Assembly (NCBI GenBank): GCA_963798975.1
Contig: CAWCVU010000013.1
Span: 232-64,231, forward strand
DNA: 64,000 bases
Direction: 5' to 3'
Origin: an uncultured Gammaproteobacteria bacterium
GTDB lineage: Bacteria; Pseudomonadota; Gammaproteobacteria; JABCZS01
Made by a program: the position numbers and the translations under genes. Under the pieces are notes generated by a model, which was not told where the DNA came from, made no database searches, and worked only from the letters and a program-made list of their open reading frames with translations. How positions within the stretch are numbered: position 1 is the stretch's first letter; the number at the start of each line of letters is the position of its first letter. This document shows, in pieces, positions 1-33,478 of the stretch.

Positions 1-40
1 GCGCTTTAGCGCCTAACCCTGGGTTAAACCTTAAACATTA

Positions 41-1992
41 CTCCGATTTTGGGGACCTGATTGTGGATTATTACCACCACCACCGCGACGTGGGGAAATA
101 ACGATCATTGGCTATTACGTCTGGGATTATGAGTTTAGTATGTTCGCGATCTCCTGTAGCTGTTGGCGTTGATGTGCCGTGAGCTCTGGGGGACGATTTC
201 GATTATTCATATTGCGACGATGATGGTGATGACCTCTGCGATGAGAGTGGTATTTTTTATCTTTATCTTTGCTGTTACCAAATAAAGCATTCCATAGTTT
301 CTTCCACCAACTTACTTTTGCAGCGGGTTTTGAAGGTTCAATACCCATACTGGCCGGACGGGTTGGGGTAATGGCCATATGATCGATGGCTGCTGCAACC
401 GGTACCGGTGCAGACAGTGCCGTTTCTACTTCTGCTTCTTTTTCTTTTAACAGTAGTCATTATATCCAGTTGATAACTGGTGTGCGCTTGTGTGCTCACA
501 TCATCTTTTGCGATACGACGAATTTCATAATTGGGACGATTGATTTCACGATTAGGCAAAATATATAGTTTTAACACCGTGAGAAGTTCAATATGGGTTA
601 GGCTATTGCGCTTTTCATTGGTTAAGAAAGTTCGCAACTTCAATCGGAACAATAGTATGAATTTCCGAAGTATTTTCTTTCATCGCATCTTCTTCAATGA
701 GACGAATAATCGATAAAGCCAAGATTCAATGCTGCGAATTGTGTCCTTGACCTTCACAGCGTGGGCAAACTTCTTGTATGGCTTCACCTAGCGAAGGACG
801 CAAGCGTTGACGTGACATTTCTAATAAACCAAAGCGAGAAATGCGACCAATTTGAACACGTGCACGATCCATATTCTAGTGCTTCGCGTAAGCGATCTTC
901 CACTTCACGTTGATTGCGAATAGGGGTCATATCGATAAAATCAATGACGATCAAGCCGCCAATATCACGTAAGCGCAATTGTCTGGCAATTTCATCTGCT
1001 GCTTCAAGATTAGTATTAAGCGCAGTTTCTTCAATATCACCGCCTTTGGTTGAGCGTAGCGGAGTTAATATCAATAGAAACCAAAGCTTCGGTATGATCA
1101 ATGACTGATAGAACCACCAGAAGGCAGGGCCACTTCACGTTGAAAGGCAGATTCAATTTGGCTTTCAATTTGAAAGCGGCGTAAATAGCGGCATTGCATC
1201 TTTATAAAATTTAACTCGATTAACAAAATCAGGACGTAATAGTTCAATATATTGGCAGGCTTTTCATAATACGCATTTTGATCATCAATGAAAATTTCAT
1301 CTATATCTTTACGTAAATAATCGCGTATCGCGCGTGATAATCACATCGCCTTCTTGATGAATTAAAACAGGTGCAGGCGATTCACTGAAACAGCGTTTGA
1401 ATGGCTTGCCAAAGATTGAGCAAGACTTCTAAATCCCATTGTAATTCTTCTGTGAGCGACCTACCACCTGCGGTGCGAACGATCAATGCCCATGCCTTCT
1501 GGCAACTTGCAGTGATTAAGTACTGCACGTAATTCGTTCACGATCTTCGCCTTCAATTCGGCGTGAAATACCACCAGCATCTGGATTATTAGGCATTAAT
1601 ACTAAATAACATCCTGCTAGAGTTATATAAGTAGTCAGTGCAGCGCCTTTATTGCCACGTTCTTCTTTATCCACTTGAACAAGTAATTCTTGGCCTTCAT
1701 GTAACACATCGGTAATGTGTACTTTATGCGGTGCAGTTTCACCTTCAACAGGTTTGGGGAAGAACTGTGGGGCAATTTCTTTTAGTGGTAAGAAACCATG
1801 GCGCTCAGAGCCATAATTCACAAAAGCAGCTTCAAGGCTGGGTTCAATCCGGGTAATGCGGCCTAAATAAACATTCGATTTTTTTTGTTCACGGCCTTTG
1901 CTTTCTAAATCTAAATCTAATAACTTCTGACCATCGACTATCGCAACCCGCAACTCTTCGAGCTGCGTTGCATTAATTAACATTCTCTTCAT
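41..1992 (-). pseudogene. rne: Ribonuclease E, reading frame broken by many single-base indels (pseudogene or sequence errors)
   Basis: ORF 1516..1992(-) is a canonical RNase E N-terminus ([10 protein letters not shown]..., [38 protein letters not shown]). Downstream, the conserved RNase E peptide path can only be read by hopping between all three minus-strand frames. The path is [14 protein letters not shown] / LIVRTAG..LQWDLEVLLNLWQAIQ / SESPAPVLIHQEGDVII / RAIRDYLRKDIDEIFIDDQNAYYEK / ACQYIELLRPDFVNRVKFYKDAMPLFT / [24 protein letters not shown] / [16 protein letters not shown] / [61 protein letters not shown] / [42 protein letters not shown] / IRSIESLALSIIRLIEEDAMKENT / FLTNEKRNS. An Arg/His-rich tail continues to about nt 41. 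Confidence 0.8.
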
Positions 1993-2343
1993 CGTGCAAC
2001 CTTATTATTTTTAACGGTAAGGTTACCGAACGCATCATTTAGGCTAGAATTGAATCACACGTTGTTTGTGCGCACTTTTTCATGCCAATCCTCATTTAAA
2101 TTGGCCTTTATGATTATCGGAAACCTTTGTTTACATTCCTGGTATATATACCAGCCTTAACATGTCGGCATTGGATATTTAGTGTGTTAGCTATATAAAA
2201 TAAAATCCAAGCAGAATAACTTAATATGTTTCGCCTAGCATAGCATTTCTTATTAGGCTCAGCAATGGTGTTTTTATTTAAACAGTTGTCTCGAAGACCA
2301 ACAAATGTTATAAAGGTGGCTTATAAGCAGCAAGGAGTAAGTG

Positions 2344-2718
2344 ATGAAAACGCATATCATCGGTAATAAGACGAATGCAATAGCGATAGTCAATGTTGAG
2401 TCTAAAGACACTTTTATTGAAGTGCAAGAAGCTTTGCGAGCACTACGCAAGGTGGGTAGGACTCAAATTATCCTAAATTTATCCGCTTTAGATGCGTCAG
2501 ATTGGGAAAACTATGAAGAAGAACAAAGAGCTATAAACTTAAATAGTATAAGTAAACTGAGCGCCGATAAAATAATTCTACCCGTTTTACCTCCAAAACT
2601 GACTGATGCATTTGGCCAGACACCTGTCTTTGTAAACAAGTTTGTGGTTAAAGATCAAGAGAAAACAGCGCCTCTAGACCATCACCCCAATAGTTTTGTC
2701 CCTGTTAAAAAGCAATAG
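2344..2718 (+). CDS. Hypothetical protein (124 aa), no recognisable motif
   Basis: Intact ORF with a strong RBS (AAGGAG at 2332-2337, 6 nt before the ATG at 2344). It lies between the divergent rne and rluC genes. Confidence 0.6.
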   Translation: MKTHIIGNKTNAIAIVNVESKDTFIEVQEALRALRKVGRTQIILNLSALDASDWENYEEEQRAINLNSISKLSADKIILPVLPPKLTDAFGQTPVFVNKFVVKDQEKTAPLDHHPNSFVPVKKQ

Positions 2719-2745
2719 GTTGGCATTTCATGGTATGATAGCGCC

Positions 2746-3669
2746 ATGGAAAAAGTTACAGTTGAAATGCGGGAAATTACCGAACAAGAAGCCGGACAGC
2801 GGATTGATAATTATCTGCTGCGTATTTTAAAAGGCGTGCCCAGAACGCGTATATATCGTGCCGTGCGTAGCGGTGAGGTGAGAATTAATAAAAAGCGGGC
2901 GGATGCGAGCGATCGTATTCAAGCGGGTGATATTGTGCGCATTCCGCCAATACGTACGGCAGCACGTCCTATTGTTAAACTAGAACCTCATTTAAGCCAA
3001 GTGTTAAAAGATCGTATTATTTATGAAGACGATACCCTTATAGTATTGGATAAACCTTCGGGTTTAGCCGTCCATGGCGGCAGTGGTTTAACCTTGGGCG
3101 TGATTGAAGCGCTGCGCTTAATGTATCCTAAAGCGCAATTAGAATTAGTTCATCGTTTAGATAGGGATACTTCAGGTTGTTTAATGGTTGCGAAAAAGCG
3201 TAGTCAATTGTTATTTTTACATGAAGCCTTACGCGAAGGTCGAGTAGCTAAAAAATACATTACCTTATTAATCGGTCGCTGGCCAGCCTCGCAGACTGAA
3301 GTCGATTTACCTTTGCAAAAAAATATTTTAAGCTCGGGCGAGCGCATGGTTAAAGTTAGCGCAGAAGGCAAAGCTTCTAAAACCCTATTTCATTTAATAA
3401 AACATATCGGAACCATGAGTTTGATGGAAGTGACCTTAATGACAGGACGCACCCATCAAATTCGCGCGCATGCGGCGTATAAAGGTCATCCCGTTGCCGG
3501 CGATGAAAAATACGGTGATAAAATAGCCAATCAAGTCTTACGCGCAAAAGGTTTAAGGCGATTATTCTTACATGCCGCAGAATTAGTCATTCCAACGCCT
3601 GAGGGTAGTACCATTACCGTGAAAGCGGATTTAGATGAGAAATTATTAAAATTTCTAGATCATATTTAA
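2746..3669 (+). CDS. rluC: 23S rRNA pseudouridine synthase, RluC/RluA family
   Basis: N-terminal S4-like region (RIDNYLLRILKGVPRTRIYRAVRSGEVRINKKR) and catalytic motif HRLDRDTSGCLMVAKK. Divergent from rne, as in E. coli. Confidence 0.9.
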   Translation: MEKVTVEMREITEQEAGQRIDNYLLRILKGVPRTRIYRAVRSGEVRINKKRADASDRIQAGDIVRIPPIRTAARPIVKLEPHLSQVLKDRIIYEDDTLIVLDKPSGLAVHGGSGLTLGVIEALRLMYPKAQLELVHRLDRDTSGCLMVAKKRSQLLFLHEALREGRVAKKYITLLIGRWPASQTEVDLPLQKNILSSGERMVKVSAEGKASKTLFHLIKHIGTMSLMEVTLMTGRTHQIRAHAAYKGHPVAGDEKYGDKIANQVLRAKGLRRLFLHAAELVIPTPEGSTITVKADLDEKLLKFLDHI

Positions 3670-3727
3670 TATAAATTGCAGTCATAGGCCACAGGCCTTA
3701 TATTGCGCGTTTATTTGGACTAATAAT

Positions 3728-4210
3728 ATGGCACTTAAAACATTACCTTTTAAACTATTAATTTTCGATTGGGAAGGTACTCTGGCTGACCCGAGTCATG
3801 TGTATCCTACCCAATTATTCCCTAACACCTTATCGGTGTTAAATGCGCTGCATAAGGAGGGTTATTTGTTGGCTATTGCCACTGCTAAATCTAAAGAAGG
3901 TTTAGCTGCCGATCTGGTCCATATGGGACTTAAAGAGATCATTAGCGCGACTTGTACCGCACAAGAAAGTGAACCTAAACCTCATCCGGCCATGTTATTT
4001 AATATCTTGGACAAGTTGGCAATCAGCCCACAAACTGCTTTAATGATAGGGGATACGATTTACGATCTATCGATGGCGCAGCAAGCCAACATGTCTGCAT
4101 TGGCAGTAACTTATGGTGTGCAAACACGAGAAGAATTGCTAGAATACAAGCCGCTTGCCTTCATCGACACGATCACAGAATTACCAGTTTGGCTAACTCA
4201 CAGGAAATAA
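3728..4210 (+). CDS. HAD-superfamily hydrolase, short (160 aa), phosphoglycolate-phosphatase-like
   Basis: Motif I is LLIFDWEGTL (the second Asp is replaced by Glu), motif II is AIATAKS, and KPHP and the motif IV GDTIYD are present. The spacing between motifs I and II is too short for a normal cap domain. Confidence 0.75.
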   Translation: MALKTLPFKLLIFDWEGTLADPSHVYPTQLFPNTLSVLNALHKEGYLLAIATAKSKEGLAADLVHMGLKEIISATCTAQESEPKPHPAMLFNILDKLAISPQTALMIGDTIYDLSMAQQANMSALAVTYGVQTREELLEYKPLAFIDTITELPVWLTHRK

Positions 4211-4212
4211 TC

Positions 4213-5151
4213 ATGCAAGATTCTACACAAAATACGCTTTGGGAACGTGAAGTATTAGAAAAGACCTTAATGGCCAGCGTTACGGAACAACGTCGCGCCA
4301 GACGTTGGGGTATCTTTTTTAAATTGATATTTTTAACGCTGTTTTTATTAATTTTATTTGCATCTTGCTCTGATAGTGTCTCACACAAACCTTTAAAATC
4401 GCACACAGCTGTGATTAATGTGGATGGTTTAATTGATTCAGAAATCAATAATGCGGAATTAATCACTGAGGGTCTACGCGCAGCATTTGAAGAAAAACAA
4501 GCGCAAGGGATTATTTTAAAGTTAAACAGTCCTGGCGGTAGCCCCGTACAATCTAATGAAGTGTTTGATGAAATTATGCGCCTTCGTGCCTTGCATCCCG
4601 ATAAAAAAGTATATGCAGTCATGGAAGATATCTGTGCGTCTGGTTGTTATTATATGGCGGTTGGGGCCCATAAAATTTATGCCAATCAAGCCAGTTTAGT
4701 CGGATCCATCGGTGTTTTATTTGATGGCTTTGGCTTTGTAGATACTTTAAATAAATTAGGTGTGCAACGTCGTTTATTAACTGCTGGCAAAAATAAAGGT
4801 TTTATGGACCCCTTTTCACCCAGTACACCTGAAATGGAAGCCTTTGTGCAAGACATGTTGAATGATATTCATCAGCAATTTATTACCGCAGTTGAACAAG
4901 GTCGTGGCGATCGTTTAGTGAAAAATGATCTCACGTTCAGTGGTTTAGCATGGACAGGTCATCAAGCACTAGAACTGGGTTTGGTTGATGGTTTAGGCAG
5001 TGCTGCTTATGTGGCGCGCGAAGTCATCGGTGCAGAAACCTTAATTGATTACACCGCCAAACCCAATTGGTTAGAACGCTTCAGTCAGCAGATGGGTGCA
5101 AGTTTTGCTCACGCCTTACGTTCTGAAGTTTATACGCAACATCTGCTTTAA
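4213..5151 (+). CDS. Signal peptide peptidase SppA (36K type) / S49 family peptidase
   Basis: N-terminal TM segment, then S49 motifs (LKLNSPGGSPVQS, CASGCYYMAVGA, SLVGSIGV). RBS AGGAAA precedes the ATG at 4213. The ORF-track start at 4189 overlaps the HAD gene. Confidence 0.85.
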   Translation: MQDSTQNTLWEREVLEKTLMASVTEQRRARRWGIFFKLIFLTLFLLILFASCSDSVSHKPLKSHTAVINVDGLIDSEINNAELITEGLRAAFEEKQAQGIILKLNSPGGSPVQSNEVFDEIMRLRALHPDKKVYAVMEDICASGCYYMAVGAHKIYANQASLVGSIGVLFDGFGFVDTLNKLGVQRRLLTAGKNKGFMDPFSPSTPEMEAFVQDMLNDIHQQFITAVEQGRGDRLVKNDLTFSGLAWTGHQALELGLVDGLGSAAYVAREVIGAETLIDYTAKPNWLERFSQQMGASFAHALRSEVYTQHLL

Positions 5152-5162
5152 GAGGTAGTACT

Positions 5163-6320
5163 TTGACACAAAAATCTTCCTGGATCACAGGCTTTTCGCT
5201 ATTTGCTATGTTTTTTGGTGCTGGGAATGTGATATTCCCGCTACTGGTTGGGCAATATGCAGGGCAGCATTTTTTCTTAGCCATGTTAGGATTATTGGTC
5301 ACAGCCGTTGCCGTGCCTGTTTTATGTTTACTGAGCATGGTGATGTTTAATGCCGATTACCGGACATTTTTTGGCCGTGTAGGCCGTTGGCCCGGTTGGT
5401 CCTTGATCATCTTAAGTCTATTATTATTAGGGCCGTTTTTTGCACTGCCGCGGGTCATTACTGTAGCCCACGGCGCATTAACTTATCATGTATTGGATAT
5501 TTCTCTGCCGTGGTTTGCATTTATCTTTTGTTTACTCACTTTATTTTTTACTTTAAAAAATACTATTTTCACTCATGTACTGGGCTATATATTAACACCT
5601 TTACTATTAATATTTTGTATCGCCTTAGTTGGATTTGGTCTGGCCACGCCGCCGATAGCTGACAATATTCAAGACGAAGAAAAGCGGTTTCTAATTTATG
5701 GCCTGATAGAAGGTTATTTTACCCTCGATGCTGTAGCTGCCTTATTTTTTGCTGGTATTTTAATCAAAAGTGTTAAAGGCCTATTAGCTAAACACGAACA
5801 TAATCAACATCAAGTATTTAAAGCCGTATTGGGCGCCAGTGCCATCGGTGGGGGATTATTAGCGCTCGTTTATCTAGGTTTAGGTTATGTATCCGCTAAG
5901 CATGGACAATTTTTATACCAAGGCAATGTAGATGCCTCGCAAATTTTAACAGCGCTATCTTATCATGTCTTCCCCGGGGGTGATGCCCTGTCTGCCGGTT
6001 TAGTATTTTTAGCTTGCCTAACAACTGCATTAGCATTAGCTGCATTATTTGCAGATTTTTTACAAGAAGAATTACATGCCAGAAAAATAAATATAAATTA
6101 TGCATACCCCTTAGGTATTACCCTATTAATCGCTTTTTTAATGAGCACCCTAGGTTTTACCGGCTTAATGAGTTGGATAGGCCCAGTAATCGTATTTTGC
6201 TACCCCTTATTTATCGTCTTAAGCATATGCAACTTAGCCAATAAATTATGGCATTGGCAATGGGTTAAAATACCCATGCTAATCACCTTAGGTTTGATGT
6301 TGTGGTTTAGTGTGGTTTAA
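5163..6320 (+). CDS. brnQ: Branched-chain amino acid transport system II carrier (LIVCS family)
   Basis: N-terminus TGFSLFAMFFGAGNVIFPLLVGQ is typical of BrnQ. Polytopic membrane protein with a TTG start. Confidence 0.85.
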   Translation: MTQKSSWITGFSLFAMFFGAGNVIFPLLVGQYAGQHFFLAMLGLLVTAVAVPVLCLLSMVMFNADYRTFFGRVGRWPGWSLIILSLLLLGPFFALPRVITVAHGALTYHVLDISLPWFAFIFCLLTLFFTLKNTIFTHVLGYILTPLLLIFCIALVGFGLATPPIADNIQDEEKRFLIYGLIEGYFTLDAVAALFFAGILIKSVKGLLAKHEHNQHQVFKAVLGASAIGGGLLALVYLGLGYVSAKHGQFLYQGNVDASQILTALSYHVFPGGDALSAGLVFLACLTTALALAALFADFLQEELHARKININYAYPLGITLLIAFLMSTLGFTGLMSWIGPVIVFCYPLFIVLSICNLANKLWHWQWVKIPMLITLGLMLWFSVV

Positions 6321-6379
6321 AAATAAAGCTCCGGCTCAATATTGCATATTACATCGAGCCTATTTATCAGGAGTGTATT

Positions 6380-8260
6380 ATGGGGAAGTCAATTCAATCA
6401 CTTCTAGCCTACGCTTCAGTTGCAGAACTTATTAAAGAGCTAGCTGATAATTTTAATGAATATGATTTTGAAAATACAGACAAGAGCATTACAGTTGAAT
6501 CTAAAAATCCTTTAATTAAGCATTTTATTGATCTTTTGATCCCCTATTTGACAAACAAAATATCTGAAGGGTTGGAAGCTCAACCTTTTTCTCCGCGTTT
6601 CATTAATGTAAATGATCTGTGGCATGGAAATAATAAATCAGCCCCAGCGGAGCTTACTCAATTTTATGAGTTATTGCGTGATTATTTTACCAATAGCAGC
6701 TTTAGCGCTCAGTTAATTGATAATAAAAAATTAATGCATCCCGATATATTAGAAATCTTTCAAGAATTTCTTGTTGTAGAAATGTTTCACAATATGAAAG
6801 GAAATGATTTTTTAAAGATGCTGGATCGTGTAGATCAAATGTCGAATGAACTTAAGTCATTGCTAGACACCCAGCATTTATCAAAAATTCTCCAAGATAA
6901 CATTACAATTCTTTTAACTGGTTTTTTTTCAAAATTACATGGATTTGTCAAAGAAGGTGGTTTAACTTACTTTATTAAAATATTTAATCAAACAAAACCT
7001 TTGCACAAAGTTGATTATGACCTTCGTTTAAAATATATACGAGAAAAAATCTTTAGAGTTTGTTTAACGCAACTGCTTTTATTAATAAAAAACTTACAAG
7101 ATTTAGTAGATGTTTTAAATATTTTAGAGAATAATGAAGCGCAACAGCTCTTTGACGCTATTCCAGCAGAACAGTATATTGACTGGCTACAAACGGTCGA
7201 TCCATTAATTTGGGTTTCAGAAAAATTAAGCATGCTCGATGAACGCCTAATGCAATTGTGTAACGCTATTCCCAAAACACATTATGCATCATTATTTTCA
7301 TCAATCGAACAATTTATAAAATACTTTAGTGTATTAAACGCTTTGTTACAACAGTGGTGGTTGAAAGCGCTTATACAGAATGATGGTGCATTTTGTGATA
7401 AGTTATGTTCTACTATTGAACAGTCTAGTCTCATTCTGGAAGTTATAAAAAACAGGTCTGATAAAATTTACTTTATAAGCACTATTTCAGCAGCACACCT
7501 TGTTTTGTTAGCATCCACTAGACAAAAATTTATAAAAATCCTCGCGGTATTAACTCATCAGGAAGCATTTGCTACAAGGAATGAACTTTTGACTTTAATT
7601 CCACAAGAGACTTACACGGCCTTTATACAAACGATAGATGATCTCACAACAGTCTGTCATGTACAATCTGGCTCGGCACTGAGGCAACAGGTGCTGTCTG
7701 TAATTTCCAAGGAACATTATAATCGTTTACTCCCACAAACTATTACAGCATTTTTGAATGAGACTGAAGAAAACAAGAAGATGATTCTACTTTTTATATT
7801 GTCACCGCAGTGGTGCATAATGACTACTTCCCTGCATGAGTATTATAAATTTTGTGACTATCTTGTGCAGGCGAGGCAGGGATACTTGGAAACCGATTAC
7901 AAACTATTTATGCAACCTATCTTAAAAAAATACTCTGCAATTAGCGCATGCTATACTTCATCAAATAATTCATGGAGCAAGGCGTTCACAAAAGGCGATG
8001 TTGATTCTCAAGCCATTTGGGATTTAGCAAAATGTGAAGATAATGTAAATTCTATTATAACCGCAATTCAATTGAAGTATAAAAAATCTTCGTCATCATC
8101 AGCTACAGAAAAAACTGATCATCTGATTGGTTGGTCAGCTGCGCAATTGACCCTTAGTTTTAATGCTGTAAAATATGACGAAGTAACGCCTTTGGTGGAA
8201 CTGGATGAAAATAATTTAAGCGCACAAGCCAAAAACTTGGTGCGTAGTTTGGGATTATAA
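6380..8260 (+). CDS. Orphan 626-aa protein with four copies of an IP-x-E-x-Y helical repeat; effector-like
   Basis: Long intact ORF with no enzymatic motif I recognise. Internal repeats: AIPAEQYIDWLQTV, AIPKTHYASLFSSI, LIPQETYTAFIQTI, VISKEHYNRLLPQT. Confidence 0.7.
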   Translation: MGKSIQSLLAYASVAELIKELADNFNEYDFENTDKSITVESKNPLIKHFIDLLIPYLTNKISEGLEAQPFSPRFINVNDLWHGNNKSAPAELTQFYELLRDYFTNSSFSAQLIDNKKLMHPDILEIFQEFLVVEMFHNMKGNDFLKMLDRVDQMSNELKSLLDTQHLSKILQDNITILLTGFFSKLHGFVKEGGLTYFIKIFNQTKPLHKVDYDLRLKYIREKIFRVCLTQLLLLIKNLQDLVDVLNILENNEAQQLFDAIPAEQYIDWLQTVDPLIWVSEKLSMLDERLMQLCNAIPKTHYASLFSSIEQFIKYFSVLNALLQQWWLKALIQNDGAFCDKLCSTIEQSSLILEVIKNRSDKIYFISTISAAHLVLLASTRQKFIKILAVLTHQEAFATRNELLTLIPQETYTAFIQTIDDLTTVCHVQSGSALRQQVLSVISKEHYNRLLPQTITAFLNETEENKKMILLFILSPQWCIMTTSLHEYYKFCDYLVQARQGYLETDYKLFMQPILKKYSAISACYTSSNNSWSKAFTKGDVDSQAIWDLAKCEDNVNSIITAIQLKYKKSSSSSATEKTDHLIGWSAAQLTLSFNAVKYDEVTPLVELDENNLSAQAKNLVRSLGL

Positions 8261-8509
8261 TTTAATATAAATGAAAAAATATTTCTTAGCACTATGACTC
8301 TTATCGGAATTGTTTTTTATAATTATTTAAGTTTTGTCTCGTAGAATATTTTTTAACTACCGGCTGAGGCGCGATAGGTGGTTTAAATTTATTTAAGTTT
8401 AAGGCCTCGCATTATACCGTGAAAGTGCTCATCTTGTTGAATTTAATCGTAATACTTGGATATTATGTATTGAGTTGACATAAGTTTGTTGCTTTGTTAA
8501 GCTGGCTTA

Positions 8510-24760: not shown

Positions 24761-25372
24761 ATGCCACGGAAAACAGATAAACGCGTTCGTTTAGTCGACG
24801 CAGCAAAAGCCTTGATACACAGACAAGGGTTTAATTTAACAACCTTAGCTGACATCGCACAAGAAGCGGATGTTCCCTTAGGTAACGTTTACTATTACTT
24901 TAAAACTAAAGAAGCCATTGGTGAAGCGGTTATTACAAATCGTGGACGTGAGTTGCACGAAGCACTGCAAACCTTTGAAAAAGCAGCAAATGTTAAAGAT
25001 CGCTTATTGGCATATGTTCAATATGAAGTTGATAATGCTGATGAAACAGCTAAAAGTGGTTGTCCAGTCGGCGGATTGTGTCAAGAACTGGCCAAACAAG
25101 GTGGTTCATTGGCTGACGCAGCTGCAAAACTGCTTAATGATACGATGTTATGGGTTGAAAAACAATTTCATGGCATGGGCATGGGCGATGCTTCTCGTGG
25201 TTTGGCGGTACAATTTGTTGCGGCTGTACAAGGTAATGCCTTGTTAACCAACACATTTAAAGACCCTCAAATTTTGGCTCAGCTAAAATCTTCTTTGAGC
25301 AAATGGCTAGATAAAGTCGTAACTACAAAGAATGTGACTGCGCCGATTGAGAAAGCGGAAGAATTTGCATAA
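24761..25372 (+). CDS. TetR/AcrR family transcriptional regulator (paralog 1)
   Basis: N-terminal HTH (GFNLTTLADIAQEADVPLGNVYYYFKTKEAI). About three quarters of residues are identical by eye to the ORF at 56348..56956(-). Confidence 0.9.
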   Translation: MPRKTDKRVRLVDAAKALIHRQGFNLTTLADIAQEADVPLGNVYYYFKTKEAIGEAVITNRGRELHEALQTFEKAANVKDRLLAYVQYEVDNADETAKSGCPVGGLCQELAKQGGSLADAAAKLLNDTMLWVEKQFHGMGMGDASRGLAVQFVAAVQGNALLTNTFKDPQILAQLKSSLSKWLDKVVTTKNVTAPIEKAEEFA

Positions 25373-25403
25373 CGTTTTGATTTTGTTGTGTTTTTATAAA
25401 ATA

Positions 25404-25441
25404 AAAACCACCCGTATTGTTTAATACGGGTGGTTTTTTTT
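25404..25441 (+). terminator. Rho-independent terminator after TetR paralog 1
   Basis: Stem CCACCCGTATT / AATACGGGTGG with a GTTT loop, followed by a T-run of 8 or more and preceded by an A-run. Confidence 0.8.
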
Positions 25442-25507
25442 AATCTTTGGCTATAGTATTAGGGCCCGATTGGGTAATATTTTAATACATACTTAAGGAG
25501 ATTTTAA

Positions 25508-26080
25508 ATGTTACATCATTATAAAATAAGTTTGCTCGCTTTAGCAGCTTTTATTTCTACTGCAGTTTTTGCAGAAACCGGTCCAGAAGAAGACACACAA
25601 GGTCGCGGTTTAAAACATGGCTTTTATGTGGAGTTTGACCAAGGTGGTTATGGTGAAGATTTAGACGATGAATCTACTGTTTTTGCTCAATTTTGCTCAG
25701 ATTTTCGTTTTGATGAAGATGCTTCCAAATGTAAATGGGTTAAACTTGATAATGAAAACCCCACTTTTGTTAAATTTTTTACCAATCACACTGTTTATTT
25801 GAGCTCCTTGAAAATCAAAAAAGGCTGGAGCAATGATGAATCAGAAGAAACTCTTGCCACTTTGGATTCGGCTGTTTGGGCAAATGTAATTAATTTCAGT
25901 GGTCCATATGATGATTGTACCGAAGATCTGGGTGTCAGGTTTTATTCTACGGCTAATGGCGTAGGGTATCCTTTCTTAGTCATTACCTATGACAATGAAT
26001 ATGGCGCAGCCAATCACGGCAGCACTGTGCTTAATTGCGATAATGGCAATGTGATTTGGGCAGGAAAGCGTAGTCTTTAG
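25508..26080 (+). CDS. Secreted hypothetical protein (190 aa)
   Basis: Signal peptide MLHHYKISLLALAAFISTAVFA-ETG and an acidic mature region with 5 Cys. No recognisable family. Confidence 0.65.
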   Translation: MLHHYKISLLALAAFISTAVFAETGPEEDTQGRGLKHGFYVEFDQGGYGEDLDDESTVFAQFCSDFRFDEDASKCKWVKLDNENPTFVKFFTNHTVYLSSLKIKKGWSNDESEETLATLDSAVWANVINFSGPYDDCTEDLGVRFYSTANGVGYPFLVITYDNEYGAANHGSTVLNCDNGNVIWAGKRSL

Positions 26081-26137
26081 TAGTCTTATCCCCAGGTATT
26101 CCGCTGGCTACTTAGCTGGCGGACAGGGGTTTGATCT

Positions 26138-26596
26138 TTACTTAAGAGGCAACGCAGTTTTTTCAATAATATGATTTAAGACAAAACTAGACTGCACGTT
26201 ACTGACGCCTTCAAGCCGGGTTAATTTATTTAATAAAAAAGCCTGATAATCATCAAGATTACTGGCAACCACCTTAAGTAAATAATCAGCCAAATGCCCC
26301 GCGATTAAATAGCACTGTATCACTTCTGGATAAGCAGCTATGGCCTGCTCAAAGCCTTGCATGGTTTTTGAGTCATGATTATTTAAGCTCACTAATACCA
26401 TGATGGTTAAGTCTAAACCCAGCTTTTTAGGGTTAAGCAGGGCCACGTAATTTTTGATATATCCATCGTCCTCAAGCTGTTTTACCCGGCGTAAGCAGGA
26501 AGAGGGCGATAAAGCCACCTTTTCAGCCAAGTCTTGATTGCTGATCTGGCTATTAGTTTGTAAAAGCTCAAGAATTTTCTTATCCGTACGGTCCAT
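26138..26596 (-). CDS. lrp: Lrp/AsnC family transcriptional regulator
   Basis: HTH DKKILELLQTNSQISNQDLAEKVALSPSSCLRRVKQLEDDGYI plus a C-terminal RAM/AsnC_trans_reg domain. Divergent from leuA. Confidence 0.9.
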   Translation of the reverse strand: MDRTDKKILELLQTNSQISNQDLAEKVALSPSSCLRRVKQLEDDGYIKNYVALLNPKKLGLDLTIMVLVSLNNHDSKTMQGFEQAIAAYPEVIQCYLIAGHLADYLLKVVASNLDDYQAFLLNKLTRLEGVSNVQSSFVLNHIIEKTALPLK

Positions 26597-26621
26597 GGTT
26601 TTCTCCTGTTAAGCCAAATTA

Positions 26622-26667
26622 TAAAATATTATTCTATAAAATACAATATATATAAAATATTATTCTA
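26622..26667 (+). promoter_or_regulatory. Two direct copies of an Lrp-consensus-like box in the lrp-leuA intergenic region
   Basis: TAAAATATTATTCTA occurs at 26622-26636 and again at 26653-26667, spaced 31 bp apart. Each matches 14 of 15 positions of the E. coli Lrp SELEX consensus YAGHAWATTWTDCTR. Confidence 0.45.
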
Positions 26668-26751
26668 AAATATATAAAATATAACCAATATTTGCAATCA
26701 TTCGTATCCGATACCCGATAGACTAATTAAATAGACTTAGGAGCTAGGGTC

Positions 26752-28342
26752 ATGAAAACACAAGAACGCGTTTATATATTTGATACAACATTACGCGATG
26801 GTCAGCAATCGCCAGGCGCAGGCATGTCTTTTGCTGATAATTTACAATATGCTGAATATGCCGATGAATTAAAAATTGATATTTTAGAGGCTGGATTTCC
26901 TGGCGGCCACTAAAACGGATTTTTCGATAGTACAAGCCATTTCACAATTAATGGCAGATAAAAATTCAAATATGCGCATTGCAGGTCTTTGTCAATTACG
27001 TGAAGAACAATGCATTAAAACCATGGAAGCGCTTGCACCCTCGCAAAAGATCGCTAGGGCCAGAGTGCACACTTATGTGCCCGTTTCACCGCATTTAATG
27101 CAGGCATCATTAGGTGATTTAGCCCATCAGCCAGCACAAATAATTGAAACGCTTTATCATATTATTGCTATGGCACATCAAGCAGGTTATGAAGTCGAGT
27201 TTAGCCCTGAAGGTTATTCGCGTATGCAAAACAATTTTGATTTTACAACAGATTTGATTCGTGCAGCAGTAACTGCAGGTGTGAACGTTATAAATTGTCC
27301 GGATACCATAGGGGGTGCTTCAAAATACGAAGGCGAAAATTATTTTGTAAAAAATATGCAACGTCATGCGGATATTATTAAACGTGAATTTCCTGATAAA
27401 TCGATTATTTGGTCTGCACACTGTCATAATGATTTTGGTTTAGCCTTAGATAATACCATGAACGCTGTTTTTGAAGGACCTGCGCGACAGATAGAAGGTT
27501 GTATTAATGGGGTGGGAGAGCGAGCCGGCAATGTGGCCTTAGAGCAATGCATTATGTATATTAAACAGTTTGGCAATCAAGTCAATGAACGAGAGAATTT
27601 TTATACGGGTATTAATCCAACCCTGTTGCAGCGCATTTCCAATTTGATAAATGATAAAATGTTAAGCCGTCAACCACATTTTCCTATTGTAGGTAGCAAT
27701 GCTGCAAAACATACCTCAGGCGGTCATACCAATGCGATATTAAAAAACCCAATCGCCTATCAACCTTTTGATCCCAAAGAAATCGGTAATGAAATTAGTT
27801 TTGCCTTTGGACCCTTAAGTGGCAGTAATCATGCAAAAAAAATCATAGAACACTTTGGTTATCGTTGTGATACACATGAAAAAGTAAATATAGCGCAAGC
27901 GATTAAAGATTATTATAGTGATAGGCGTAAAGGCGTGACAGATGAAGAACTTATTCATGCTTATCTTGAATATAGAAAACCCATACAAATTACAGATTTT
28001 TCCTATGGTAAAAAAAATAATGATCATGTATTAGAGTTGCAGGGTAATTTTTTTGAACATAAAGAATATTTTAAAATAAATTATCAAGGCAGCGGTTCAG
28101 CCTTGTCAGCGCTCGAGCAAGCCATTTGTGCTAAAATGGGACCTATACATATAGAAAGCTACCAAAGTAAGGCCAAGGGTAAAAACATTACTGCTGTCAG
28201 TTTAAGCACTATAGTGATATCCACCCTTGATGAAAAAACATTTGAAGGCAGTGCAGAAGATCCGAATATTGAGATTTCAGCTTTAAAAGCATTGATTGAT
28301 GCAGCCAATAAAGCGTATATCGATAAACATTATATTTTGTAG
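26752..28342 (+). pseudogene. leuA: 2-isopropylmalate synthase, split by a +1 frameshift near nt 26901-26903
   Basis: ATG 26752 encodes MKTQERVYIFDTTLRDGQQSPGAGMSF...ILEAGFPGGH-stop (26911-26913). The continuation AATKTDFSIVQAISQLMADKNS... is in the +1 frame and joins ORF 26951..28342. Removing one G from CCTGGCGGCC restores GFPAA. Confidence 0.85.
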
Positions 28343-28352
28343 GAGTATATAA

Positions 28353-29752
28353 GTGAGCGGAAAAAATATTATTGATAAAATATGGGACACACATATCGTT
28401 GTTCAAGAACCAGGACATCCGGCCGTTTTTGCCATAGATTTAATGTTATTACATGAAGTCACTAGTGCTCAAGCTTTTCAACTTCTTAAAGAACGCAATT
28501 TGCCCGTATATCAACCCAAGCGTTGCATTGCGACTATTGATCACAGTGTACCCACGCGTAAAGATAGACAGATCTTTTATGATAACAGTGCAAAAAATCA
28601 AGTTGAACGTCTGCGCAGTGATGCTCAAAAACATGGCATAACGCTTTATGATTATGACAGTGGCCAACAAGGGATAGTGCATATTATCGGTCCTGAGCTT
28701 GGCGCAACGCAACCGGGTTTAACCATTATTTGTGGCGATTCTCACACCTCAACCCACGGTGCATTTGGTGCGCTCGCTTTTGGTGTAGGCTCATCTGAAA
28801 TTGGACACGCACTTGCCAGTGGCTGTTTATTATTAGATAAACCAAAAACCATGCGCGTGACTTTTAAAGGTGCACTTAAAAAAGGCGTTTATTCTAAAGA
28901 TATGATTATGAAATTAATTGCTAGCATCGGTATTGGTGGTGCTAATGGTCATATTATTGAATATACGGGCGAAGCAATTGAACGTATGTCGATGGAAGAG
29001 CGCATGACTATTTGTAATATGAGCATAGAATGTGGTGCGCGTGCGGGTTTAATTCAACCTGATGAAACGACCTTTGCTTATATAAAATCAAGACCCTATG
29101 CGCCCAAGCCAGAAGTGTGGGACAGTGCAGTTAATTATTGGAAAAGTTTAAGCAGTGATCAAGATGCTCATTATGATAAAGAAATAATAATCGATATTGA
29201 TTTACTAGAGCCCATGGTCACTTGGGGCACTAATCCTGCACAAGCCATAGCCATAAATGAGCGCATTCCAAAATTAATAGATTTGCCAATAGGCATGCAA
29301 GAATCGCACAGCAATGCTTTAAATTATGTGGCTTTAAAAGAGGGCGATCCGATAGTAGATACACCCATCGATTGGGCATTTGTAGGTTCTTGTACCAACG
29401 CGCGGATAGAAGATATGCGCATCGTTGCTAAAATTTTAGAAGGTAAAAAAATTAATCCAGAGGTAACCTTTTTCATAGTGCCTGGATCAGAGGCCGTATT
29501 AAAGCAAGTTAAAAATGAAGGCTTAGACAAAATCTTTGAAAATGCAGGCGCACAATTTAGAATGCCCGGATGCTCGCTCTGTATCGGCATGAATGATGAT
29601 AAAGTACCTCCGGGTAAACGTTGTATCTCTTCGTCGAATCGTAATTTGTTGGCCGACAAGGACCAGGCAGCAGAACACATTTGGCTTCACCTGCAACAGT
29701 TACTGCAAGTGCGCTAGCAGGTAAAATTGTCTCGCCTGTCAATTATATATAA
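28353..29752 (+). pseudogene. leuC: 3-isopropylmalate dehydratase large subunit, C-terminus frameshifted near nt 29644-29650
   Basis: Aconitase-family motifs are present (GDSHT, CTNARIED, PGCSLCIGMN). After SSSNRN the annotated frame reads [13 protein letters not shown]. Adding one T to AATTTG gives [34 protein letters not shown], the canonical LeuC end, stopping at 29750-29752. The observed length of 1400 nt is one short of a multiple of 3. Confidence 0.85.
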
Positions 29753-29762
29753 AGGAGCTGGC

Positions 29763-30335
29763 ATGAAAAAAATAACACAAATTTCCGGAAAAGTTATCCC
29801 TTTAGCGATGAATGATGTGGATACCGATTTAATTATTCCCGCACAATTTTTAACTAGCACGAGCATGTCCGGCTATGGTGAAAATGTATTTCGTCGCCTG
29901 CGCGATAGCGATCCTAATTTTGTATTTAATCAAGAAAAATATTCAGGCGCTAATATCATGGTGACACAAGATAACTTTGGTTGTGGTTCCTCAAGAGAGC
30001 ATGCGGTGTGGGCTTTATTAAATGCAGGTGTCAATGCCATTATTGCAGAATCATTCGCCGATATATTTTTTAATAATGCAGGAAAAAATGGTTTAATTTT
30101 AATTAAACAACCCGCGCATATTATCGAAAAATTGATTCATTTGGCCGATGGTCAATACAGTTTGACGATAGACATCACTAAGCAAATGCTCATAACAGCA
30201 GATAAACAATATCCATTTGAAATGGATCCCTTCTATCAACATTGCTTGGTCAATGGCCTAGATCATTTAGATTATTTATTAGCGCATAAAGCACAAATTT
30301 TGCAATGGAGTGAAAAAAATCATTATGCGACTTGA
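29763..30335 (+). CDS. leuD: 3-isopropylmalate dehydratase small subunit
   Basis: MKKITQISGKVIPLAMNDVDTDLIIPAQFL and GCGSSREHA. RBS AGGAG at 29753-29757. Confidence 0.9.
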   Translation: MKKITQISGKVIPLAMNDVDTDLIIPAQFLTSTSMSGYGENVFRRLRDSDPNFVFNQEKYSGANIMVTQDNFGCGSSREHAVWALLNAGVNAIIAESFADIFFNNAGKNGLILIKQPAHIIEKLIHLADGQYSLTIDITKQMLITADKQYPFEMDPFYQHCLVNGLDHLDYLLAHKAQILQWSEKNHYAT

Positions 30336-31410
30336 GAAAAAAATAGCAGTACTGGCAGGTGATGGCATAGGCCCGGAAGTGATGGCCCAAACCCTTAGGG
30401 TCTTAGATGCTGTTGCTCAAAAATTTGATTATCAATTTAATTATATTGAAGGCATGATAGGTGGGCAAGCCTATGATCATTATCAACAACATTGCCCTGA
30501 TGAGACTTTAGCGATTTGCCAACAAGCTGATGCCATATTATTCGGCTCTGTAGGCGGTCCGCTTAATGCACAGCACTTGCCTAAATGGCAAGGTTGCGAA
30601 ACCAATAGTATTTTAAAATTACGAAAGTATTTTAATTTTAATGTGAATATAAGGCCCTTTCAGGTTTACTCTGAATTACTTCATCATTGCCCCTTAAAAC
30701 CGGAAGTGATAGGTGAAGGTGTGGATTTCTTGGTTTTTCGTGAATTATTAGGCGGGATATATTTTGGTAAACACGAGCGATTAGTACAGAATAATCAACG
30801 CGCAAGTATTGACGAATGTACCTATGATGAATCGCAAATTGCAAATATAGCTCATGCTGCTTTTAAAGCAGCACAATTACGAAATAAAAGTCTATGCAGT
30901 GTCGATAAAGCCAATGTGCTGGCCACTTCAAAACTCTGGCGCGAAGTGGTTACCGAAGTAGGACAAGCCTACCCCGAGGTAAAACTTTCACATATGTTAG
31001 TCGATAATTGTGCCATGCAATTAGTTATTAATCCTAGACAATTTGATGTAATCCTCACCGAAAATATGTTCGGCGATATACTCTCAGATTTAGCCGCAGC
31101 GCTACCTGGATCTTTAGGACTTATTCCCTCAGCCAGTTTAAATGCACAGGGTAAAGGATTATTCGAACCTTCAGGTGGCTCAGCCCCAGATATCGAAGGT
31201 TTAGGCATCGCAAACCCCAGCGCACAAATTTTATCCGCAAGCATGATGCTTCGCTATTCATTCAATCTAGCAGAAGCAGCAAATGGAATAGAAAATTCCG
31301 TTAAAAACGTAATCAAACAAGGTATCATCACAAAAGATTTAGCAACAACAAACAGCGTTTCAACAAAAACATTTGTAGATGCTGTGATCGATAATATGAA
31401 AATACAATAA
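30325..31410 (+). CDS. leuB: 3-isopropylmalate dehydrogenase
   Basis: IAVLAGDGIGPEV, NMFGDILSD, GSAPDI motifs. The ATG at 30325 overlaps the leuD end by 11 nt. Confidence 0.9.
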   Translation: MRLEKKIAVLAGDGIGPEVMAQTLRVLDAVAQKFDYQFNYIEGMIGGQAYDHYQQHCPDETLAICQQADAILFGSVGGPLNAQHLPKWQGCETNSILKLRKYFNFNVNIRPFQVYSELLHHCPLKPEVIGEGVDFLVFRELLGGIYFGKHERLVQNNQRASIDECTYDESQIANIAHAAFKAAQLRNKSLCSVDKANVLATSKLWREVVTEVGQAYPEVKLSHMLVDNCAMQLVINPRQFDVILTENMFGDILSDLAAALPGSLGLIPSASLNAQGKGLFEPSGGSAPDIEGLGIANPSAQILSASMMLRYSFNLAEAANGIENSVKNVIKQGIITKDLATTNSVSTKTFVDAVIDNMKIQ

Positions 31411-31423
31411 TATTCCGAAGGGC

Positions 31424-33478
31424 TTATTTCATCGTAAGATCAATCTGTAAATTCTGTTGCGGATTTATATTAGCAGTATTAAATAATGCTTCCAATTTGC
31501 ATTCAAGTTTATTCCAGATATTATTGCTGTCTTGAAGATAAAATTTGCTTAATTCAGTTTGCATAAAGACAGCGAGATCTTTTTTATCATTTTCAGTCAT
31601 GCCTTGCGAAGGCATTGCTAATTTTTCATTTAATCTTGTTATAGAGCTTGAATCGCCATGTCGAATTATATTTTGCAATGGGCGTGTTGAGCTTGCCCCA
31701 TTACTATTTTTTTCAAAAGAAACGGTTTGTAGCTGCTGTACTAATGCATACCCCCATATTTTAAGGACGGATGCATCGCACTGTGGTGATAATTGATTGA
31801 GCCAGAAATTGCCTTGTTCACTCATCAATTTTAAGAAATCAAAACTTGCACCCTTTTCAATGAGCATACAGGCAATGTCTGCATGGCCATGGATAAGCAC
31901 ATCTTGCAGTGCACAAGTGCTGGCCAGTAAATTTCTATATTTAGTTATCGTTGCAGTATCATAATATTCTTTGCGTTCTAAATTACTGATAAGACCAGAT
32001 AGTTGTTCGGAATCAATGGTGCTTTTAGTATTGAGGATCTCTTTGGTCAAATCTTTACTATCGAGCAAACGTTTTATAATTGACCGCCACCGTGGCCCAT
32101 GATTATACTGAGGATTATTGCAATAATTGAGTACTGCAACCCTAATAAGTGGTAGGTTAACTACTATAATACTAGTGCCATAAGTGCCATTTTTAGCGGA
32201 TATAACAAATTCCATTGTGCCTGAATATAATTCACCTATAGATAAAAATAAATCTTTATTCGTTTCTAGCAATGCTGATAATTCTTGGTCATTACTTCGT
32301 TTTAATAAATTTTTAATAAGATAAGTACAGAGCGCTTGATACAATTCCCCCCAGCCATTTTTATCTTTATATTGACCTGATAGCAGTAATAGACCATACA
32401 TTTTTTTTGCTATTTCTGCTGAATCATTGTTTGTGATTAACAAACCTTGCGAAATCATCAGTTGCGCGTAGAGGGGAATCATGAATTCATCTTTAAATAA
32501 ATCAACGGGGGATATGCCAAACAGCTTGCTCATAACACTTCCATCTTCTGATGAATGCGACATTTGTTCGCTGACTTCTCCTTTAGAGCGTTTCATGATT
32601 CCGCCTAATTGTGCGATCATGGCTATTAGTGCAGGATTTTTCTTTCTGATAGCGACATCTAAGGCACTCTCACTTGTGGCTTTAAGTTCTAGATCAATAT
32701 CTACACCACGAAAGATTAAGCACTCAGAAATAACAGTCATATCGCTTAACAGTTCATGATGAAATGCACAAGGTTCTTCATCACTGCTGTGTGTATAGCT
32801 TGCTATGCCGAAAAGACGTTCTCTTAGCACATAGATTAATACGTCTGCCCATTTTTTCTTCTTCTCGTCTTGGGCGCTTACCATTAATAGTGCTAGTGCT
32901 TGAACAAGGTATGCATTCTTTAGTTCTTTATTATTGGGTAATTGAATGACCTCTAACAGTGCAGTGGTATATGCGCCTTGTTGGAAAAGCGTCAACACTG
33001 CATCGGGATCATCTCTTAGCATAGCCGCTTGCATGGATTGAGTATTCGCATCAAAATTTACTGATTTTGGAACATTAGCAGCATAAGCATTTATTTTTTC
33101 GATTAACTTTGTCCGATCATCTTTATTAAAAAATGCTATATAGTAATTTTTAATAAATCCTAATACGGATTTACGCGCATGCGGATTCGATAGATCCGCA
33201 ACAAAACAATACAAATCGTTGGTAATTTCTATAGCGGCTCGAACATTATAGAGATCATTGGCTGTGCGGCTTTTAACAAAAACCATTGGCGGCGGTCCTT
33301 GGTATTCAAGCGTTAATATGTCACCTTTTATTTTAGGGATATAGCCGCTGGGCGTATTTTTCTGCCCTTGAAGATCAGGCGAAAAATGTTTCAAATTTTT
33401 TATTATTGTCTTTATCTGGGTACATCCTATTCCCTTTATGCGTAATCGATTTGTTATGTTACCTATGTTATATGTCAA
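31424..33478 (-). CDS. Orphan 684-aa protein with ankyrin-like repeats; effector-like
   Basis: ANK-like segments: CALQDVLIHGHADIACMLIEKGASFDF, SALDVAIRKKNPALIAMIAQLGG and MQAAMLRDDPDAVLTLFQQGAYT. The TTG start is uncertain. Confidence 0.7.
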   Translation of the reverse strand: MTYNIGNITNRLRIKGIGCTQIKTIIKNLKHFSPDLQGQKNTPSGYIPKIKGDILTLEYQGPPPMVFVKSRTANDLYNVRAAIEITNDLYCFVADLSNPHARKSVLGFIKNYYIAFFNKDDRTKLIEKINAYAANVPKSVNFDANTQSMQAAMLRDDPDAVLTLFQQGAYTTALLEVIQLPNNKELKNAYLVQALALLMVSAQDEKKKKWADVLIYVLRERLFGIASYTHSSDEEPCAFHHELLSDMTVISECLIFRGVDIDLELKATSESALDVAIRKKNPALIAMIAQLGGIMKRSKGEVSEQMSHSSEDGSVMSKLFGISPVDLFKDEFMIPLYAQLMISQGLLITNNDSAEIAKKMYGLLLLSGQYKDKNGWGELYQALCTYLIKNLLKRSNDQELSALLETNKDLFLSIGELYSGTMEFVISAKNGTYGTSIIVVNLPLIRVAVLNYCNNPQYNHGPRWRSIIKRLLDSKDLTKEILNTKSTIDSEQLSGLISNLERKEYYDTATITKYRNLLASTCALQDVLIHGHADIACMLIEKGASFDFLKLMSEQGNFWLNQLSPQCDASVLKIWGYALVQQLQTVSFEKNSNGASSTRPLQNIIRHGDSSSITRLNEKLAMPSQGMTENDKKDLAVFMQTELSKFYLQDSNNIWNKLECKLEALFNTANINPQQNLQIDLTMK

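Follow-up and report, generated by a model that had tools for sequence, protein, structure and literature searches.

The rne gene (RNase E) of the uncultured gammaproteobacterium analysed here is broken by at least 19 single-base frame changes, and these are probably read errors left uncorrected in the draft genome, which was assembled from a metagenome, instead of mutations of the organism. The fragmentation of rne is judged not to be a real biological feature, and the living organism would most likely carry rne intact and of ordinary form, with about 645 codons, as its same-genus relatives do. The same type of damage affects indispensable single-copy genes throughout the assembly, such as rpoB, rpoC, groEL, alaS and metG, and is tied to the structure of the assembly, with noisy sequence enriched at contig ends and the rne patch starting 324 nt from one of them.

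Reading path and frame changes of rne

The window, i.e., the whole stretch of 64,000 nucleotides that was analysed, corresponds to positions 232-64231 of contig C13 of assembly G000 (2.16 Mb in 34 contigs, completeness score of 73.6%). The rne gene is located at the very start of this contig, within its first 2.2 kb. In window coordinates, the gene and its neighbour show the following features:

31..1992, minus strand: full coding path of rne, with the ATG at 1992 and the stop codon at 33-31; at least 19 frame switches are needed
1537..1992, minus strand: codons 1-152 of rne, the clean 5' part, which reads in a single frame (ortholog DNA alignment and frameshift-aware alignment)
94..1536, minus strand: noisy patch of single-base indels, 14 of them insertions and 5 deletions (frameshift-aware alignment, ortholog DNA alignment and patch table)
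1517-1500 and 1471-1445 (within 1445..1517), minus strand: two hidden compensating -1/+1 pairs in apparently in-frame stretches
1138..1538, minus strand: divergent block, codons 152-285, with about 30 residues unlike those of same-genus relatives
2746..3669, plus strand: rluC, the intact divergent neighbour of rne, through which independent short-read contigs from this organism were retrieved

The first ORF of rne (1516..1992, 158 aa) is the only one open by itself, and the remainder of the gene is scattered over all three minus-strand frames. Read through the frame changes, rne gives 649 codons without any stop, whose product is 82.5% identical to the closest ortholog and collinear with the intact same-genus orthologs (82-83% identity). 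This read-through contains an N-terminal S1 region, the RNase E/G catalytic region, a CPRCxGxG motif and a basic His/Arg-rich tail. It matches TIGR00757 with 540.2 bits (cut-off 326) and the NCBIfam ribonuclease E model NF008074 with 855.6 bits, just below the equivalog cut-off of 908 because it is shorter than the 1061-aa E. coli protein. Both matches hold for the read-through and for no single open frame, and pieces of PF10150 are detected in three frames. RNase E is short in this Legionellales genus, about 645 aa (window 31-560 and relatives L008-L011), and its basic, His/Arg/Asn-rich tail replaces the long scaffold region of the much longer E. coli protein. Unlike other gammaproteobacterial RNase E genes, among which it belongs to the short Legionellales type, the gene of the window is untranslatable as deposited. 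An Rfam scan of the window gave zero matches.

The 19 frame changes were located by aligning the DNA, with frameshifts allowed, to intact RNase E proteins from the same genus (L010 and L009). There is one base too many near positions 1536, 1484, 1399, 1338, 1179, 1106, 1057, 870, 740, 632, 566, 448, 113 and 94, and one base too few near 1264, 723, 585, 185 and 132, which gives 14 insertions against five deletions. A MAFFT alignment of the DNA with four intact orthologs placed single extra bases at 1535, 1486, 1399, 1338, 1181, 1106, 1058, 872, 741, 633 and 574, and single missing bases at 723 and 587, plus a few longer differences. Most of these indels sit in columns where all four orthologs agree and the window alone deviates. 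The hidden compensating pairs, at least two in number, come on top of the 19 frame changes and mimic substitutions, with NHCKLP in place of DQLQLP and AGGRSLTEE in place of AGVGRSSED. No motif is common to the insertion contexts, and of the 11 single-base insertions located by MAFFT, only two lie next to a base of the same kind. On the contig the patch covers C13:325-1767. Zero frame changes were seen in the terminal 205 nt of the contig, where the convergent neighbour gene has its C-terminus; about 2.6 would be expected there at the density of the patch (chance of none about 0.08), a point against read error. On the other side of rne, rluC is clean.

A preliminary description of this DNA had reported a gene riddled with frame changes, which is borne out by at least 19 of them between 1536 and 94, a denser set than was claimed. 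Eleven of its 13 positions lie within about 20 nt of an event located here (127 corresponds to 132, 1050 to 1057 and 860 to 870). However, no event was found at 378, the nearest one being at 448, and six events (723, 585, 566, 185, 113 and 94) were absent from its list. With the hidden pairs included, an indel occurs about every 65-80 nt, and not every 150 bp as had been estimated.

Conservation and selection along the reading path

An intact rne of 643-652 codons was found in all four same-genus genomes compared in full (G001, G002, G003 and G005), with 78-80% nucleotide identity. Codons 286-480 hold eight frame changes. Of the codons that differ there, a share of 0.09-0.19 is non-synonymous, compared with 0.09-0.16 among intact orthologs, and because these values match, purifying selection on the rne path is undiminished. 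The weakly conserved C-terminal tail is as distant from the same-genus relatives as these are from each other.

These results bear on the possibility that rne is a true pseudogene, RNase E having been lost through many small indels in an organism that relies on RNase G or other nucleases, which we regard as very unlikely. In its favour, an intact rng is present on C11 (509 aa; NF008689, 659.6 bits with a cut-off of 594), and the detectable frame changes end before the neighbouring gene. The preliminary description had proposed a search for a second intact rne or rng copy. RNase G proved to be intact, while no second rne was obtained, the rng paralog being the only match to the rne region within G000. 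Nevertheless, at least 19 indels without a stop, together with selection like that on intact orthologs, are incompatible with neutral decay, and rne is intact in every one of the four relatives.

The encoded peptide had been called nearly perfect, and this stands for its freedom from stops and its overall identity but not for codons 152-285, which carry about 30 lineage-specific replacements. In this block the nucleotide identity to the relatives falls to 0.68-0.73, compared with 0.84-0.86 among the relatives, and there is a surplus of amino-acid differences without a surplus of synonymous differences. Thirteen of the 37 window-specific positions in codons 1-500 have the commonest residue of 52 more distant RNase E proteins, and several other window-specific residues are by-products of the hidden indel pairs. 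Random decay therefore does not account for the lineage-specific residues either. Derived residues (e.g., EFAFMRKV) are common to all 12 same-genus RNase E proteins, whereas the window has the pan-gammaproteobacterial ESAFQREV-type consensus at 13 positions. The block suggests either a burst of replacements in the common ancestor of the relatives or a mosaic origin.

The divergence of this block would also be explained by a different artefact, in which reads from at least two related strains or species present together were merged into one consensus at the contig end, or the end is chimeric, so that both the indels and the divergent codons 152-285 arise from mixed sequence. This explanation is unlikely, although it deserves some weight. 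Its support in the gene itself comes from the excess of amino-acid differences and the lowered identity of codons 152-285 described above. Against it, the C-terminal tail of rne shows no extra distance from the relatives, synteny is as in the relatives on both sides, and 13 of the divergent residues are coherent ancestral states and no scramble.

Frame changes across the assembly

To map frame changes in the whole assembly, 2013 ORF proteins from the 20 largest contigs of the same-genus genome G001 (2.21 Mb, nearly all of it) were located in G000 by tblastn and then aligned with the frameshift-aware aligner. At least one frame change was found in 449 of the 1165 orthologous genes (about 39%). 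In total, G000 shows 1638 frame-change events (947 insertions and 672 deletions), or 1.5 per kb. The reverse control, in which long ORFs of G000 were aligned to G001 DNA, still gave 0.33 events per kb, a background from the aligner or from G001 itself. The control events may be frameshift errors of G001's own, or compensated error pairs of G000 read as G001 events. A scan of ORF length as a proxy for noise had also flagged the rRNA operon on C24 and was replaced by this ortholog-based map.

The events are gathered in 87 dense patches with at least five events each, a median length of 947 nt and about 90 nt per event. Examples of these noisy patches are:

C4:108532-111378: sucA
C9:23475-31877: rpoBC
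C26:1-2600: noisy patch at the start of the contig

Patch length has an interquartile range of 635-1450 nt, and the indel rate within patches, about 1.1%, is like raw-read accuracy. The patches would fit stretches backed by a single long read. Noisy sequence was found at 13 of the 38 assessable contig ends and in 54 of the 499 interior windows (odds ratio 4.3, p = 2.5e-4). Among the patches, that of rne is a typical one, with 15 events at the stricter penalty, and the gene ranks 20th by number of events. Elsewhere on C13, the coding sequence that was aligned amounts to about 35 kb and contains four events. The contrast between rne and the rest of the window that was described before is thus confirmed, but the clustering is peculiar to rne only within the window, since such patches recur across the genome.

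Among the damaged genes are rpoB with 29 events, rpoC with 18, groEL with 19, alaS with 20, metG with 19, aceE with 20, sucA with 49 and uvrA with 32, and rpoB was found in G000 as one broken locus only. Because no cell survives with rpoB, rpoC, groEL and others like them destroyed, the damage lies in the sequence record. The reasoning that makes rne a pseudogene would make pseudogenes of rpoB, rpoC, groEL, alaS and metG as well, and a very recent inactivation of an essential gene, which was one of the three options of the preliminary description, does not agree with genes of this kind being damaged alike. As regards a mixed or chimeric consensus, noise that follows gene conservation through cross-species recruitment of reads was considered and rejected: genome-wide noise is unrelated to conservation, the median identity being 0.785 in noisy and 0.781 in clean genes (p = 0.53).

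A further reading takes the frame changes as real and supposes that expression gets past them, through programmed ribosomal frameshifting, transcriptional slippage or RNA editing. In the endosymbionts Buchnera and Blochmannia, frameshifted genes are rescued by transcriptional slippage at poly(A) tracts, and rne resembles those cases in that an essential gene is frameshifted while the protein path is conserved, free of stops across every frame change. However, the endosymbiont cases involve long A/T homopolymers and one site per gene, whereas rne shows about 20 non-homopolymer sites of both signs, some of which compensate each other in pairs within a few nucleotides. Neither a slippery motif nor a homopolymer is common to the insertion sites, which also speaks against the rescue by slippage that had been suggested earlier, and about 1600 recoding sites would be needed genome-wide. 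Recoding is therefore extremely unlikely. That the indels are truly in the DNA and that a Legionellales-like bacterium expresses rne, rpoB, rpoC, groEL and hundreds more genes through a motif-free, genome-wide frame correction, e.g., single-base editing at the RNA level, is less credible still, to the point of being barely conceivable.

Independent sequence of the same organism and origin of the frame changes

Exact-protein look-ups with the intact neighbours of rne led to short-read Logan contigs from ERR11718638, ERR12035940 and ERR11561019. The contig ERR11718638_7049544 (L017/L023) is 100.000% identical to window 1890-14210 without gaps. Positions 1890-1992 of rne are therefore identical in this contig, which stops at 1890, about 100 nt into the gene. 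Other short-read contigs show 100.000% identity to window 2348-8438 and 3246-7198, and the identity is 99.93-99.95% over window 24782-33122, where three positions are informative for indels:

25434, plus strand: extra A in an A-run, not in a third short-read contig
26902, plus strand: extra base that breaks leuA, missing from two short-read contigs, in which leuA is complete (529 aa)
29645, plus strand: lost base that truncates leuC, present in a short-read contig, in which leuC is complete (466 aa)

All the indel differences, three of three isolated ones and all of them outside the rne patch, go against the window. The DNA is accordingly not frameshifted at the sites tested, which stands against recoding, against a pseudogene and against recent inactivation. 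Three substitutions, at 28688, 32674 and 32692, also separate the window from the same-strain short-read contigs.

A sister assembly in ENA (ERZ25039590) has a contig with a Flye-style name, contig_60546, from the same organism at 99.4% identity, in which different genes are broken. Its end (L024:1-1065) consists of 1065 nt of foreign high-GC DNA fused inside rluC at window position ~3600; this stretch looks methyltransferase- or metW-like and then tRNA-like, and makes the contig end chimeric. Two independent assemblies break no more than about 450 nt away from the start of rne, at 1890 (ERR11718638) and 2348 (ERR11561019), and two more breaks or joins lie farther in, inside rluC, at 3246 (ERR12035940) and at ~3600 in the ENA contig. 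Both the breaks and the foreign terminus of the sister contig are in favour of a mixed or chimeric consensus at this locus. The Flye-style name and the chimeric end are also hints of an error-prone platform or thin coverage.

Walking into rne from RluC, a HAD hydrolase and a 124-aa protein, every contig ended at or before window position 1890. In a collection of 5.8 billion proteins, no same-species RNase E was found among the top 120 matches listed for the full read-through (best 83%) and for codons 141-400 (best 76%), a search that short same-species fragments could escape. This is a point for the pseudogene, as an intact same-species copy was not found among the matches listed. A protein search with the 254 genus-specific C-terminal residues gave a best match of 43% and no same-species RNase E. 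Exact look-ups of the broken 158-aa and 105-aa ORFs found none on record elsewhere, a result that is uninformative on whether the breaks are shared.

Uncorrected read error remains the reading preferred here, and from the genome-wide pattern the rne indels are most likely absent from the organism. The assembly alternates between long clean stretches and patches of roughly 1 kb in which an indel occurs about every 90 nt, a rate that would correspond to the errors in one or two raw long reads. Such errors would be expected where consensus support is thinnest, contig ends above all, and the rne patch would be one of these places; we infer thin long-read coverage as the cause. Of the three options offered by the preliminary description, which chose none, the evidence favours the first one, a low-quality, low-coverage end of the sequence.

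Frameshifting indels that fragment gene calls persist in long-read bins with less than about 40-fold coverage (PMC9262707), and dedicated frame-repair tools exist (proovframe preprint, 10.1101/2021.08.23.457338; Kastor, PMC12007338). G000 resembles the errors described in these works in that single-base indels split conserved genes, are absent from short reads of the same organism (as tested outside the rne patch), go with lowered marker completeness and affect essential genes indiscriminately. It differs in being strongly patchy: indels reach about 1% within patches of about 1 kb, and the stretches in between are perfectly clean. A point against read error is that in rne insertions exceed deletions and avoid homopolymers, unlike the homopolymer deletions of the classic nanopore consensus error, yet such mostly non-homopolymer insertions fit raw-read noise. 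The assembly, at 2.16 Mb, has about the size of a 94%-complete relative of 2.2 Mb, yet scores 73.6% complete, and this shortfall probably comes from frameshift-broken marker genes and not from missing DNA.

Were the indels real, a gammaproteobacterium that has lost or recodes RNase E would be a remarkable case, but the evidence is to the contrary. A public taxonomy set uses G000 as the representative of its species, and consensus errors break about 39% of the genes that could be compared. Pseudogene counts, claims of genome reduction, metabolic reconstructions and the completeness value drawn from G000 would be wrong, and other findings of frameshifted essential genes in this assembly are to be discounted unless accurate reads back them.
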